In this document: in pieces, positions 44,949 through 58,727 of the stretch | Layout of the letters: the number at the start of each line of letters is the position of its first letter | How positions within the stretch are numbered: the stretch's first letter is position 1 | Source of the DNA: a virus | Taxonomy: Duplodnaviria; Caudoviricetes | DNA: 64,000 bases | Direction: 5' to 3' (one strand) | Virus record (IMG/VR): IMGVR_UViG_3300001528_000259 | Span: 32,001 to 96,000 of that record | Translations under genes and position numbers: made by a program | The notes under the pieces: model-generated | What the model saw: only the letters and a program-made list of their open reading frames with translations | What the model was told of the DNA's origin: nothing | The model's database searches: none

Positions 44949-46331
44949 TTATCTGCTAAACTTTTTAATAGAGTAATTAAGCTGTTTAGCAAATGTATCA
45001 ATTTTCTTATCCATCATCGCTTCAAGTTGAGGCAAAGTATCTTTATCAACACGATCAACTCTTAGGAAATTCTCTACATCAACCGTAAACTGAGGTTTAC
45101 TAACAGCATTATTAATCATGTTAATATTTGCTCCAAATTTATTCGTGTTCATCAAACCATCAACTCCAATTTGACCGAGTTCCATCAATTCCTCTGTAAG
45201 ATCGGCAGGAACAACACCCGTGCCCTTACGCATGAAGGAAAGTGTTCCACCTTTGCCCGGAACGAGAACAAGTTCGTCTCCGAATTGAGGTTCGTCTGTA
45301 ATCGCAAATTCGTCACGCTTTGTGCCAGTTGTACCTTTAGCATATTGTCTAATTGCCATTGGGCCACTAACATATTGTCCCCACATTACTCGCTTAAACC
45401 TACGTTCATCATCACGTGTGTTTGCCACTTGTTTATATTGTGGAGAATATTTAATTTGATAATCTTTAAGAAGTTGCTCAAACTTACTTAAACTAATTGG
45501 ACCATATCCAAGAGCTAATACTTGATCCGAAGTAAGCTTATATTTTTTGTTTATGTCATCACCAGTAGGTGGTACATAAACAGAAGTAGGAGGAGGAGAT
45601 TGTGTACTGCCTCCGCCTGAACCAGATCCTGAGCCCGAGAGTTTAGCGCTTGCTGCTCTCGCTTCTGTGTCTTGTATTTGCTTATACAAATTGGACAGTG
45701 CAGTAGATGCAGTTTGCACATTGGAATTAATGTTAGAAACAACTCTATCCATTGCAGTAGCAACGCTGGATTTGAACGCATTAGCTGCATTCGTTCCTGC
45801 GCTCCAAGGAGACGTTAGGTTTGTTGTACCGTTTGCATTGAACTGAGCAAAGAAACCCCCTTCTCTCGTCCATTGGTTCATAAGATCGAGAGCATTGCCA
45901 GAATAATTACCAACTGCTTCTTTAGCTTTTATCCAAGGATTTGTAAGTTCAGCAGTTAATGGCAGATTTGTTTCTTCATACTTAGCAAGTATCGTATCGG
46001 CATTATACATAACCATTGAAGTGACGCCCATAAGAAACTCATCCATTTTTGCAGTGGCTTCTTCGAGACTTATGCGAAGTCCTTCAATAAATTTGTTCAT
46101 GCTTTCTTCATAAGCTTGTGCTTCAGAATCTAAAGCTTCGTTTTGGGCATTTTTTGCGTGGTCGTAGTAAGTATCGTTGAGTGACTCACGTGATTCATAT
46201 AACTGAGCTTCAAGTTTACGACGTTCTGCAATATCTGCTTTATTTGTAGAACCAGACAAACTTGCGATACGACGCTCAATTTCAGCAATATCTTTTGCTT
46301 GTTTTTGTACATTCTTTTTAAAATCATATAA
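44949..46331 (-). CDS. Tape measure protein, exon 3
   Basis: Frame is open up to TTA at 46331 (LYDFKKNV...); TMP C-terminal motif YAKGT...ELV...G.GVVPADLT. Confidence 0.88.
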   Translation of the reverse strand, partial: LYDFKKNVQKQAKDIAEIERRIASLSGSTNKADIAERRKLEAQLYESRESLNDTYYDHAKNAQNEALDSEAQAYEESMNKFIEGLRISLEEATAKMDEFLMGVTSMVMYNADTILAKYEETNLPLTAELTNPWIKAKEAVGNYSGNALDLMNQWTREGGFFAQFNANGTTNLTSPWSAGTNAANAFKSSVATAMDRVVSNINSNVQTASTALSNLYKQIQDTEARAASAKLSGSGSGSGGGSTQSPPPTSVYVPPTGDDINKKYKLTSDQVLALGYGPISLSKFEQLLKDYQIKYSPQYKQVANTRDDERRFKRVMWGQYVSGPMAIRQYAKGTTGTKRDEFAITDEPQFGDELVLVPGKGGTLSFMRKGTGVVPADLTEELMELGQIGVDGLMNTNKFGANINMINNAVSKPQFTVDVENFLRVDRVDKDTLPQLEAMMDKKIDTFAKQLNYSIKKFSR

Positions 46332-47696
46332 CCATTATGTTACTATATTCAATGAATAAAACTATGTAATTTTTCTCCTATATTTTCATTATACTTAATA
46401 CGAAGTAATAAAATATTATTTTGTTGACAGTAATCTGTTTTAATTTGATCATGGAATTGTCTAATTTTTAATCCTTTTTCTCCGCCAAAATGGTCTATCG
46501 CCTTAAAATGTTGCTCTCCATCATACTCAATGCAAATATTCAATACTGGTAGATAAAAATCAAATGGAAGCATACGCTTATCCTTACAATCATTAAATGT
46601 ATACTGCGGAATATAAGCAATATTGTTGATATTTAAATAATTGCCAATACTTTTTTCTCCGTGTGATTCATTGCATTTAGGACAGCCCTTTCCTGCTAAT
46701 ATATTTCCAGGTTTCACTTTCCATTCATGTCCACATATTTTGCATTTATGTTTTATCTTAATTTCAGTACTAACATATTCTTCAAGCGCAATGATGTTAG
46801 GATTTATATTAAACAATTTGGTAACGTACTCATTATGATTCGTACCATTTTTATTACTAATTTTTTCTTTAAGACACTCATAGCATCCACAACCTTTTAA
46901 TATATTAGTAGGCAACGCATCCCATATTACATTATGGATTAAACACCTGTGTAAAATTTTAGTTTTTACACCAACATATTCTCCCACGACTTCAATATTT
47001 GGATTTTTTAATTTTACCTCTTCAATATATTTCTCTTGTGTTTTTGTATTTGATGTTTTAAATTTTTCAATTCTACACTTTTTACATCCATGACCGTCTA
47101 ACACACGACTTGGCTTTGTTTCCCAAATCACATTGTGAATAAGACAACGATGCATAATATTTGTATTTGCATCAATATATTTTCCGATTACTTCCACATA
47201 TGGATTCTTTACTTTAAGCTCATTTACATATTCTTCATGTGTCTTTTTCTTACTCATCATACCTCACCTCCAATCATTTTGTATTATTGAGTTTTATTCA
47301 TTTAGGTTCGTTAGACCTTATAGACTTGTTATAAACAAATTTTCTCTGGCTTTCACCAAAGTGCAGACCATCTCATTTACCATAATCATTTTGTGTAGTA
47401 ATGATTTTAGGTACCCTCCATTTCGGGATACTTACCCCTAATCCTATTTCAAGGAATGGCCGTTGAACCTTATTTGTAATATTATATCATAATCATTTTG
47501 TCGTGCCAATTAACAAAATAAATAAAAAATATTACAAATCTTGGCTGCTGATTATCCAATTTTCACAATTTTTAAACATTCACGCTCATTATTGCTAATC
47601 ACGTTGTAGTTTGTGAAACTCTAAGGAAGTCCCAGCAATTAAAAGGGATACACTATAAACTTTCGTATTATAGCGGACTAAGTAAGTTAAAACTTA
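46332..47696 (-). mobile_element. Group I intron 2 (IA-like, 1365 nt) in the tape measure gene
   Basis: 5' exon ends in U and P1 GAU|UAAGU pairs with ACUUAGUC; P AATTGCTGG, Q AATCAGCAG, R GTTCAACGGCCA, S GAGATGGTCT; terminal G at 46332; splicing restores AERD|LYDF. Confidence 0.92.
46349..47260 (-). CDS. Intron-encoded homing endonuclease (zinc-ribbon repeats plus Vsr/DUF559-like nuclease)
   Basis: Repeated EVIGKY....I.HRC..H...W...P...L.G.GC units; ESHGE, LPFDFYLP and IEYDGEQH motifs. Confidence 0.88.
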   Translation of the reverse strand: MMSKKKTHEEYVNELKVKNPYVEVIGKYIDANTNIMHRCLIHNVIWETKPSRVLDGHGCKKCRIEKFKTSNTKTQEKYIEEVKLKNPNIEVVGEYVGVKTKILHRCLIHNVIWDALPTNILKGCGCYECLKEKISNKNGTNHNEYVTKLFNINPNIIALEEYVSTEIKIKHKCKICGHEWKVKPGNILAGKGCPKCNESHGEKSIGNYLNINNIAYIPQYTFNDCKDKRMLPFDFYLPVLNICIEYDGEQHFKAIDHFGGEKGLKIRQFHDQIKTDYCQQNNILLLRIKYNENIGEKLHSFIH

Positions 47697-56700: not shown

Positions 56701-58727
56701 TCAGGAACTTTACCTTGTGCAAACAAGTTTGCTATGTTCTCACACTCATTTTTTGCATTCACAACCCATGTATGGAATTGCTCTTTAGTCATCTCAAAAT
56801 TTGTAAAGAGTTTCGTCGCGACATCAAATAACTCATCTTCCGTTAGATCTTCTATTTTGGTCAGTTTAGAGCCGTCCAAAATCGTTCCGTTTCCGACTAA
56901 TTTTTGCAAACTCGATAAAAATTCTCGCAAGATTTCGGCTTGTTCAACTGTTTGGTTAACATATAATTTATATTTGCTAGCGTCAAATTCAAAAAACGAT
57001 ACTTTACCATCAGCCAGAAAGGGTACCAAATCCTGTGCTCCACTCAAAAGAGAAGCAAATATGCCATCTCCAAATCCCGCAAATTCATCCTCTAATGCAT
57101 TTTGAATTATTGGTGTATGATTCACATCATAGAGTGCATCCGCACTTTGATTTCCAAGCAATGCAGGATTAAATTCGCCTTCGACACGTCGATATAACAA
57201 TAATTTCTTTTCTGATTCTACCTGTCGTTCCACTGCCGCAGCAGTCTTTTCTTCTTCAGTGCGTTTCTGTTTTGCAAACTCAGTCGCTTCTCTTTCCGTC
57301 TTAGCTTTTAATTCAGAGTCTTCTCTAGCACGTCTTTCTGTTTCTGCGATTTTATTTGCGTTATTAACATCTTCTGGCGTTGGTCCAAACTGTCCGTCGT
57401 TTCCGCCATTGGCAGTACCAACATTCTCGCCAATAATTTGACGCAATGATGTTTCTGCAATACTTGCAACAGGAGAAAGTTGATCGTACAGTTCATCATA
57501 TTTTTTAAGTTTTGCTCTCATATTACGGCGTTTTACACCGTCTGATTCATTTTGTACTTTTTCAGCATAATTTTCATATTCTTTTACAAATTTAACCAAC
57601 CATTGATATTGAGCCTCCCAATCTTCATTGTTGGATAAAGACTTATCATATCTATTTTTTAGAACTGCCAATGATGCACTTTCTGGAGAATAATTAAGAG
57701 CAGAAGATATTTTTTCATTTACTTTTTCTGCACTCTTTTCTTTTTTTAACATCCTATTGTATGCTTCTTCTATTTCTTTAACTGTTTTTAAAGAAGATTG
57801 CAGATTTTCTTGATTTATAATCTCTGCTTGGTTCTGCTGTAGAGACTTTATTTGTTCATCAATCTGACTGACCTCTACGTCGATATTTTTTATTTGATTT
57901 TGATAATACTTATCAAAATTACGTACAATTTTATTAAAATCAGCATCCGCTTTGTCAAAAACGTCAGCCGTTGTATCTGAAAGATTAACGAATTCAAAAT
58001 CAGATAGCAATGTCTTATCTTTAACCAAGCCCTTATTACCGTTTATAGTACGGGACATTCTATATAGATTTTCTGCCGCACTTAAAGCCTCAATGAGAGC
58101 CGCATTGTATTCTTTTGTTCCTTTTGTGACTTCACTTAATGCATCTTCTGCCTTAATGAACTCTCCCATTATACGCTGAGCTTGTTCGTCTATGCTTTCA
58201 GTGTCAGATATTTTCAACGGTTTAAACTCGTCATATTCCATCGTTGATAACTCAGACAATCTCTCATATTTGGCATAACGCAAATCGAGTTTTTTGGATT
58301 GTTGATTTAATTCATTTTTTCTTTTTTGCAAATCATTAAGTTGCGCTATAATATCACGGCTAGCATCCGCAATTCCTTCTTTTACACCAGAAACAATGCC
58401 TTGAGCAACGCCATTTCCAATACTCTGACCTAATTTTCCAGACCCAGCATTAACGCCAGCGGTAATACCGTCTGTAATCGCACTTGCAAACTGAGATACA
58501 ATACCCTGCAATGTTTTCTCAGAGAACACAATTTCTTGTTTTCCCATTTGCTTCAATTGGTTGTTAAATTCTTTGGTCAACTCGGTCAGACTATCTGCGT
58601 CCGTATCAACCTTCATTTTCAAAATATCATTCAGCTCTTGTGCTAATTCTTTTGCATCATTTTTTACAGCGTCTCTATCCAATATAGGTTTAATCGACGC
58701 TAACCATTCTGCTTTTCTTGTTGCCAT
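53743..58727 (-). CDS. Tape measure protein, exon 1
   Basis: GAGGTG RBS and ATG 58727; TP901-type TMP core near the exon end (IDLALTELKKVT...FNEVGNRFSI...ITAANEV). Confidence 0.9.

Follow-up and report, generated by a model that had tools for sequence, protein, structure and literature searches.

A tape-measure gene of 3,697 codons, interrupted by two unrelated mobile group I introns that are each predicted to splice themselves and to carry their own homing endonuclease gene of the EDxHD/Vsr type, is the reading that we favor for the minus strand from 58727 to 44949 of the phage DNA analyzed here, and we assign it a probability of about 0.88. This DNA, hereafter called the window, comprises 64,000 nucleotides (nt) and corresponds to bases 32001-96000 of the 138.7-kb IMG/VR viral contig IMGVR_UViG_3300001528_000259, which belongs to an uncultured phage and is estimated to be 83% complete. 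Coordinates refer to the window unless another contig is named, and numbered L-contigs are viral contigs used for comparison. The introns are designated IVS1 and IVS2, and the elements of the proposed gene are the following.

53743-58727, minus strand: tape-measure exon 1, 1,661 codons plus 2 nt, with the ATG at 58727 and GTGAGGTGAG just upstream
52423-53742, minus strand: IVS1, predicted 1,320-nt group I intron, IA-like with one P7.1 hairpin, its endonuclease open reading frame (ORF) looped out of P6
47697-52422, minus strand: tape-measure exon 2, 1 nt plus 1,575 codons, with the second half of the conserved domain
46332-47696, minus strand: IVS2, predicted 1,365-nt group I intron, IA2-like with P7.1 and P7.2, its endonuclease ORF 3' of P9
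44949-46331, minus strand: tape-measure exon 3, 460 codons plus stop

One predicted tape-measure frame in three exons

Removal of 53742-52423 and 47696-46332 joins the three long frames of the minus strand without an internal stop, which supports the view that they represent one tape-measure gene. The exons of 4985, 4726 and 1383 nt add up to 11,094 nt, or 3,697 amino acids (aa) plus the stop, and our recomputed join reproduced the exon lengths, the protein length, the terminal nucleotides and the junction peptides (...AANEVV/QDPESVGTALKT... at junction 1 and ...LSAERD/LYDFKK... at junction 2) that had been given in the first-pass annotation of this DNA. The predicted ligated junctions read GAGGTGGT/ACAAGACC for exons 1 and 2, and AAAGAGAT/TTATATGA for exons 2 and 3. 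Exon 1 ends in T and IVS1 in G, and likewise exon 2 ends in T and IVS2 in G. From DNA alone each boundary is ambiguous by 1 nt, since the first base of the intron is also the first base of the next exon; a terminal exon U together with a terminal intron G is obtained only with the boundaries chosen in the first-pass annotation. The lengths of both introns are multiples of 3, hence the exons share one genomic frame. An intein or translational read-through was considered for the two inserts and ruled out because each contains an in-frame stop at its start or shortly after it: a TAG lies 10 codons into IVS1, and IVS2 starts with TAA.

Unspliced RNA is predicted to yield products of 1,671 aa, ending in IVS1, and of 3,237 aa, ending at the start of IVS2; the first of these lengths had been proposed before, and the second refines an earlier estimate of ~3,240 aa. 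The accompanying suggestion that such truncated forms might alter tail length found no support. In phage lambda, the C-terminal part of gpH is needed to start tail assembly, and fragments without the C-terminus are not expected to start it, which makes an effect of the truncated forms on tail length unlikely.

The joined protein has a PhageMin_Tail domain, hydrophobic Gly/Ala segments and a gene position in the tail module, as is typical of tape-measure proteins. The C-terminal part of exon 1 encodes the first half of the conserved PhageMin_Tail domain. Pfam PF10145 matched with 49.2 bits (cut-off 33.2), the match being cut off by the end of exon 1 at position 123 of 201, and PHROG 4211 (tape measure) was covered from profile position 577 to 762 at the end of exon 1 and from 765 to 960 at the start of exon 2, with phrog_4211 E-values of 2.5e-48 and 6.6e-32. 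Because these profiles run up to or across junction 1, and because intron-less relatives align over both junctions without a gap, the split is not a matter of chance. The Gly/Ala-rich hydrophobic segments that are usual in tape measures are located at aa 2180-2249 of the joined protein, in exon 2. The neighboring genes form a tail module, in which chaperone-sized ORFs precede the tape-measure gene and an ORF of 470 aa and one of 1,353 aa follow it, the latter matching the minor tail protein phrog_6211.

Intron-less alleles in related contigs

Related IMG/VR contigs were collected with the exon peptides as queries. The joined protein was colinear with uninterrupted tape-measure genes in related viral contigs and showed no gap at either junction. 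Intron-less alleles, a search for which had been proposed in the first-pass annotation, were thus found; each is a single open frame of 3,949 aa or, in a 170-kb genome that is complete and has terminal repeats, of 3,670 aa. At site 1, ANEVVQDPESVGTALKT aligned to ANAIIQDADSVGTALKT in the intron-less contigs L007 and L008, and at site 2, AERDLYDFKKNVQ was identical in the intron-less contigs L005 and L006. For both introns, exact removal of the insert restores a frame that is colinear with these alleles. Intron-less and ORF-less alleles at the same sites also bear out the earlier claim that both introns would have to be removed for the full protein to be made. The giant size is a feature of the clade, since the uninterrupted genes encode 3,670 or 3,949 aa and the three-exon model reproduces this size; internal repeats that would explain it were not detected by self-BLAST of the joined protein. 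Near-identical relatives were absent among GenBank phages (megablast with the whole gene), and tblastn with exon 3 and the end of exon 2 returned only two weak metagenomic matches.

IVS2 and its relatives

The assignment of IVS2 to the group I introns is supported by a curated covariance model, RF00028 (Intron_gpI), which it matched over the full model length.

47344-47693, minus strand: catalytic core of IVS2, P1-P9, full-length RF00028 match

In a search limited to 47240-47720, the match covered model positions 1-253 with 58.1 bits (gathering cut-off 50) and an E-value of 2.8e-14, and began 3 nt inside the proposed 5' splice site. A search of the whole 138.7-kb record with RF00028 repeated it. 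Rfam scans of the whole window at the gathering threshold and of 15 kb at E<=10 gave no intron match, because the speed filters drop it in stretches of at least 15 kb. P1 is predicted to pair GAU/UAAG with CUUAGUC, with a U.G pair at the splice site, and the intron ends in ...AAUGG. The core comprises P3, P4 (UGCUGG with UCAGCA), P6, P7 (GGCCAU with AUGGUC), P7.1, P7.2, P8 and a P9 that is capped by GAAA. The stop of the endonuclease ORF is separated from the terminal G of the intron by 17 nt. Further introns were not detected in the 138.7-kb record beyond IVS1 and IVS2, whether with RF00028, with an nhmmer profile of the IVS1 family or with a scan for R and S motifs.

Relatives of IVS2 are located at exactly the same codon in the viral contigs L238 and L241, with nucleotide identities of 85% and 82% and with the same junctions (...GAT/TAAG and ...AATGG/TTATAT), although the exon proteins of these contigs are only 28-37% identical to that of the window. 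L241 shares the final ~17 nt upstream of the 3' splice site without a difference, whereas its endonuclease is only 48% identical. A further similarity concerns the P3-P6 region, in which ~127 nt match an intron of Bacillus phage Internexus at 78% identity; this intron is located in the split RNA-polymerase beta gene. In the record of this phage (vB_BspM_Internexus, MW749003.1, 50572-57760) the RNA-polymerase beta gene is annotated in pieces, and its 7 kb hold five RF00028 matches of 45-104 bits, none of which is annotated as an intron. An intron with an IVS2-like P3-P6 (L250:285-1784) is present in the tape-measure gene of another phage near site 1 (~aa 1657-1660), so the region of site 1 is used by both intron types.

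The motif CAAAATGATT occurs 19 times in the window, where 0.9 copies are expected, and always on the transcribed strand. Three copies are in IVS2 on the minus strand (47272-47281, 47384-47393 and 47491-47500), and the other 16 are elsewhere in the window. Of the copies in IVS2, one lies in the loop of P6, one in the 3' strand of P8, and one immediately precedes the ribosome-binding site of the endonuclease gene. The motif could be a phage promoter or a signal of 5' untranslated regions that also drives the intron endonuclease.

IVS1 and its family

From its predicted helices and their covariation among relatives, IVS1 is supported as a group I intron of the IA type with a reduced P4-P6 domain. 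Its ribozyme sequence is divided by the endonuclease ORF into two parts.

53641-53742, minus strand: 5' ribozyme part of IVS1, with an internal guide sequence of UUUGU (P10) and GCCAC (P1)
52423-52642, minus strand: 3' ribozyme part of IVS1, from the 3' strand of P6 to the terminal G

P1 would pair GUGGU/A with GCCAC, with a U.G pair at the splice site, and the intron ends in ...GAUUG. A P10 of 5 bp can form between ACAAG of the next exon and UUUGU directly 5' of the P1 guide. The P2 loop is GUAA, followed by P3 (GAUAAC with GUUAUC), P4 (UAAGU with ACUUA), P5 (AGUG with CACU) and P6, an 11-bp helix around the ORF with AAUAAAAUUAU as its 5' strand. The 3' part contains, in this order, the 3' strand of P6, R, P7.1, the 3' strand of P3, P8, S, P9, P9.1, P9.2 and P9.3. 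Its R element UCAGAGACUA (5' strand of P7) and S element AUAUAGUCC (3' strand of P7) are near the Rfam consensus, and a conserved 3' tail, GAAAGUAAUAGAUUG, extends to the terminal G (family form GAAAGUAAYAGAUUG).

With a 16-mer from P9.1, ~80 loci that have the 3' half of IVS1 in common were retrieved from viral contigs and from bacterial genomes. From these, covariation was evaluated in an alignment of 13 diverse sequences for the named structure P7, P7.1, P8, P9, P9.1, P9.2 and P9.3. The 42 named pairs were 95.9% paired, with compensatory changes in 31 of them; none of 500 shuffles reached the observed values, and slid controls were 21-38% paired. RNAalifold recovered the hairpins of the family independently. 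The long-range P3, which spans up to 2 kb of ORF, was fully paired (6/6) in 12 of 13 distinct members through six sequences, and P4 and a variable P7 pair also covary. Thus, IVS1 has the P3/P7 pseudoknot with nested P4-P6 and P8, together with covariation and the R and S motifs. Two group I introns with inserts of the P7.1 type had been proposed before; this view is upheld by RF00028 for IVS2 and by the covariation of the family for IVS1. A related phage has an ORF-less insert of 361 nt (L012:3418-3778, in contigs L012 and L013) at exactly the position of site 1; homology to IVS1 is clear at both ends of this insert, and its P2, P3 and P9 carry compensatory changes.

The family is tightly associated with tape-measure genes. 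In all nine members scanned the upstream exon belongs to a tape-measure gene, and 67 of 79 loci have a match to a tape-measure domain within 3 kb on the same strand. The downstream exons resume at ~aa 1621, 1664, 1670-1673, 1678-1680 and 1709 of the window protein, and several single genes hold two or three copies. Prophage copies are found in Lachnospiraceae, Thomasclavelia, Clostridium, Hominimerdicola and similar gut Bacillota, which suggests that this is the host range of the clade; the phage studied here probably infects gut Bacillota as well.

Several relatives of IVS1 differ from it in composition. The insert L012:3418-3778 is a mosaic in which P1-P2 and P9-P9.3 are IVS1-like and the P3-P8 center resembles that of the T4 td intron (ACGGGG...CAAUCCCGUG); its AT-rich P6 region contains a sigma-70-like TTGACA-N16-TATAAT sequence. 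This ORF-less intron also holds ACAAAATGATT, a motif that in IVS2 precedes the endonuclease gene. A second intron of the family, ~2 kb in length (L012:3984-6000), follows 68 codons downstream (aa 1730/1731 of the window protein) and encodes a 501-aa ORF that is unrelated to the EDxHD-like endonucleases. In L097:1640-2520, one tape-measure gene holds two ORF-less introns of the family with ~200 nt between them, and a third break in its exon alignment follows further downstream.

Predicted homing endonucleases of the introns

Each intron contains one intact ORF for a putative homing endonuclease.

52642-53604, minus strand: HEG1, predicted homing endonuclease of 320 aa in IVS1, with the ATG at 53604 after GGAGGTG
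46349-47260, minus strand: HEG2, predicted homing endonuclease of 303 aa in IVS2, with the motif ACAAAATGATT, then GGAGGTG, then ATG

In the ORF listing, HEG1 starts at a GTG at 53613. Both proteins combine zinc-finger repeats with a C-terminal EDxHD/Vsr-like domain, HEG2 having three treble-clef modules followed by the nuclease domain at residues ~191-303, and they are paralogous (33% identity, E 3e-27). Both match PHROGs annotated as intron-encoded or homing endonuclease. At the DNA level they resemble genes for a "group I intron-associated VSR homing endonuclease" of Twort-like phages and a gene annotated "EDxHD" in a Klebsiella phage. Pfam recognized only the repeated treble-clef zinc fingers (DUF4379/CapR) in either protein, and with the endonucleases neither phmmer against PDB sequences nor an NCBIfam scan gave anything meaningful. 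An AlphaFold model of HEG2 was built from an alignment of 8 sequences and had a mean predicted local distance difference test score of 82.8. The C-terminal domain of the model superposed on Vsr (1cw0) with a Z-score of 11.0 and a root-mean-square deviation (rmsd) of 2.2 Å over 100 residues, and residues 199-303 superposed on I-Bth0305I (3r3p) with a Z-score of 10.8 and an rmsd of 2.7 Å for 88 of 97 residues. Foldseek with the same model gave a probability of 1.00 and a weak E-value of 0.033. Invariant in 8 relatives are E202, D234, E245, G248, Q250, H251, D271 and K274 (E..D..ExxGxQH..D..K). The modeled Vsr-like fold and the conserved acidic and His residues support the assignment of HEG1 and HEG2 to this class. 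Other members of the IVS1 family encode unrelated endonuclease types.

Proposed mechanism and alternative explanations

Each intron has a U.G pair in P1 at the 5' splice site, a guide that is able to pair with the next exon, a P3-P8/P7 core, canonical R and S elements and a terminal G. After folding of the late transcript, a guanosine would attack the 5' splice site and both introns would excise themselves. The ligated mRNA would encode the full-length protein, which would set a tail of roughly half a micrometer, given that the lambda tape measure corresponds to ~0.15 nm of tail length per residue. The endonucleases would cut intron-less alleles of co-infecting relatives at highly conserved sites, so that the introns are copied in; such homing may account for introns that are 82-85% identical between phages with exons of only 28-41% identity.

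Several observations weigh against this mechanism, and they also speak for an unlikely alternative in which the inserts are decayed and splice poorly or not at all, so that the tape-measure gene is broken (a defective lineage) or splicing depends on a helper. Even in searches of short stretches, RF00028 gave no match at E<=10 to IVS1 or to the ORF-less relatives L012:3400-3800 and L097:1600-2560, and the group I assignment of IVS1 therefore depends on our own helix assignment, on covariation and on the R and S motifs. In IVS2, P10 has only ~3 bp and is weak, and the 3' splice site is ~1 kb away from the core. Splicing in this phage is a prediction from sequence rather than from RNA or biochemistry, and the contig is an incomplete metagenomic assembly, which limits any statement on the viability of this exact genome. 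However, all core helices are intact in both introns and fit the covariation pattern of the family exactly, and both endonuclease ORFs as well as the three exons are intact over 11 kb. The sequence conservation before the 3' splice site of IVS2 that is shared with L241, far above that of the adjacent endonuclease gene, also argues against decay.

The presence of three long separate frames could alternatively mean that free-standing endonuclease genes were inserted and that three polypeptides assemble non-covalently, as in the case of nrdA/mobE of Aeromonas phage Aeh1; a functional split gene resulting from the insertion of a homing endonuclease has been published and is listed among the references of PMC10448857. 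We regard this as very improbable for the present gene. Ribosome-binding sites of the GGAGGTG type precede the tape-measure gene, HEG1 and HEG2, whereas no start linked to a Shine-Dalgarno sequence is present near the 5' end of exon 2 or exon 3; stops lie directly upstream of both exons, and the first in-frame start is located 26 codons inside conserved sequence in exon 2 and 24 codons inside it in exon 3. Moreover, ~350-450 nt of structured, covarying non-coding RNA surround each endonuclease gene, and the insertion of an endonuclease gene alone cannot explain the ORF-less intron at the same site in a relative. That the contig, being derived from a metagenome, is a chimera of intron-containing and intron-less variants is hardly credible, because comparison with intron-less alleles shows the insertions to be nucleotide-exact, because the insertions conform to the splice-site rules, and because other contigs and bacterial genomes independently have the same layouts.

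Comparison with known systems

In phage T4, the td intron has its ORF in the P6 loop, and IVS1 has the same layout with the ORF closed by long-range P6 pairing, although td has a much larger P4-P6 domain. The T4 nrdD/sunY intron has its ORF downstream of the core, as does IVS2 with its distant 3' splice site. The T4 introns also resemble IVS1 and IVS2 in having in-frame stops early in the intron. They differ in being hosted by genes of nucleotide metabolism and in encoding GIY-YIG or HNH endonucleases, whereas the host here is a virion gene and the endonucleases are EDxHD-like.

The expectation in the first-pass annotation that late structural genes are less common hosts of phage group I introns is outdated, since tape-measure genes are documented as frequent hosts (PMC2504315; PMC10448857). 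In prophages of the B. cereus group, Tourasse and Kolsto (2008) described group I introns of types IA1 and IA2 at three tape-measure sites (TMP-IVS1, IVS2 and IVS3), and reported that related introns can occupy different sites and that one site can harbor different introns (PMC2504315). The introns considered here resemble these in that several can occur per gene at conserved sites, in that their presence varies between phages, in that related introns adapt P1 to their sites, and in that sites are shared, as at site 1 between L012 and the window and nearby in L250. In contrast to the B. cereus-group introns, the host gene is ~three times longer and both introns keep intact endonuclease genes. 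There is also no nucleotide similarity for the 3' half of IVS1, for which blastn found no match in 50,697 GenBank phage records or in the PLSDB plasmids, a collection expected to hold pBWB404.

Barth et al. (2023) reported that the tape-measure gene is frequently interrupted, and demonstrated tape-measure splicing in Vibrio phage ICP1 by RNA-seq and reverse-transcription PCR (RT-PCR) (PMC10448857). As in the window, an intron bearing an endonuclease gene, HNH-3 in ICP1, splits the tape-measure gene; one ICP1 isolate has two intronic endonuclease genes at this locus, and the endonuclease content varies while the context is constant (PMC10448857). Unlike in ICP1, splicing is predicted here, and the endonuclease family and the host phylum are different. 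A structural counterpart of HEG2 is described for the recA intron of Bacillus phage 0305phi8-36, whose intron-encoded EDxHD enzyme I-Bth0305I has a C-terminal Vsr-like domain, as HEG2 is modeled to have (PMC3239194; PDB 3R3P). In contrast to I-Bth0305I, the nuclease activity of HEG1 and HEG2 is predicted and their N-terminal DNA-binding part consists of repeated treble-clef zinc fingers; the sequence similarity is too low for phmmer. Group I introns with or without an endonuclease gene are also present in late virion genes (capsid and minor-tail) of Cluster J mycobacteriophages (Pope et al. 2013; PMC3706429). These were likewise defined by comparison with intron-less relatives and have U as the last exon base and G as the last intron base, but they are single introns in other genes of phages with high-GC hosts, and RT-PCR has confirmed that they are spliced (PMC3706429).

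Implications and further observations

A tape-measure gene interrupted by two introns is an already known kind of arrangement and is well supported. The window adds a clean doubly interrupted case to the published evidence that mobile introns settle preferentially in the conserved domain of tape-measure genes, and introns that are far more conserved than their host genes bear the signature of recent horizontal spread. With regard to IVS1, we consider it possible, at slightly less than even odds, that it represents a lineage of group I introns that is invisible to Rfam and is found almost only in the conserved tape-measure domain of phages and prophages of gut Bacillota. This lineage would use at least 4-5 sites within ~90 codons, often with 2-3 copies per gene, and would have swapped endonuclease cargo (EDxHD-like or other) and some mosaic members. 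If it is undescribed, counts of phage introns would be systematically too low, and tape-measure genes would be a major reservoir of mobile ribozymes. Since IVS1 was never recognized by RF00028, and IVS2 was missed by the scans of the whole window and of 15 kb, phage surveys based on this model undercount, and a negative Rfam scan of the whole window does not equal an absence of group I introns. At this locus, automatic gene calling would yield three "tape measure fragments" and two "HNH endonucleases", where the correct annotation would be one protein of 3,697 aa, from which a very long tail (~0.5 micrometer) is predicted.

Elsewhere in the window, a cluster of four tRNA genes (Leu-TAA, Lys-TTT, Gln-TTG and Leu-CAA) is located on the plus strand at 18560-19521.

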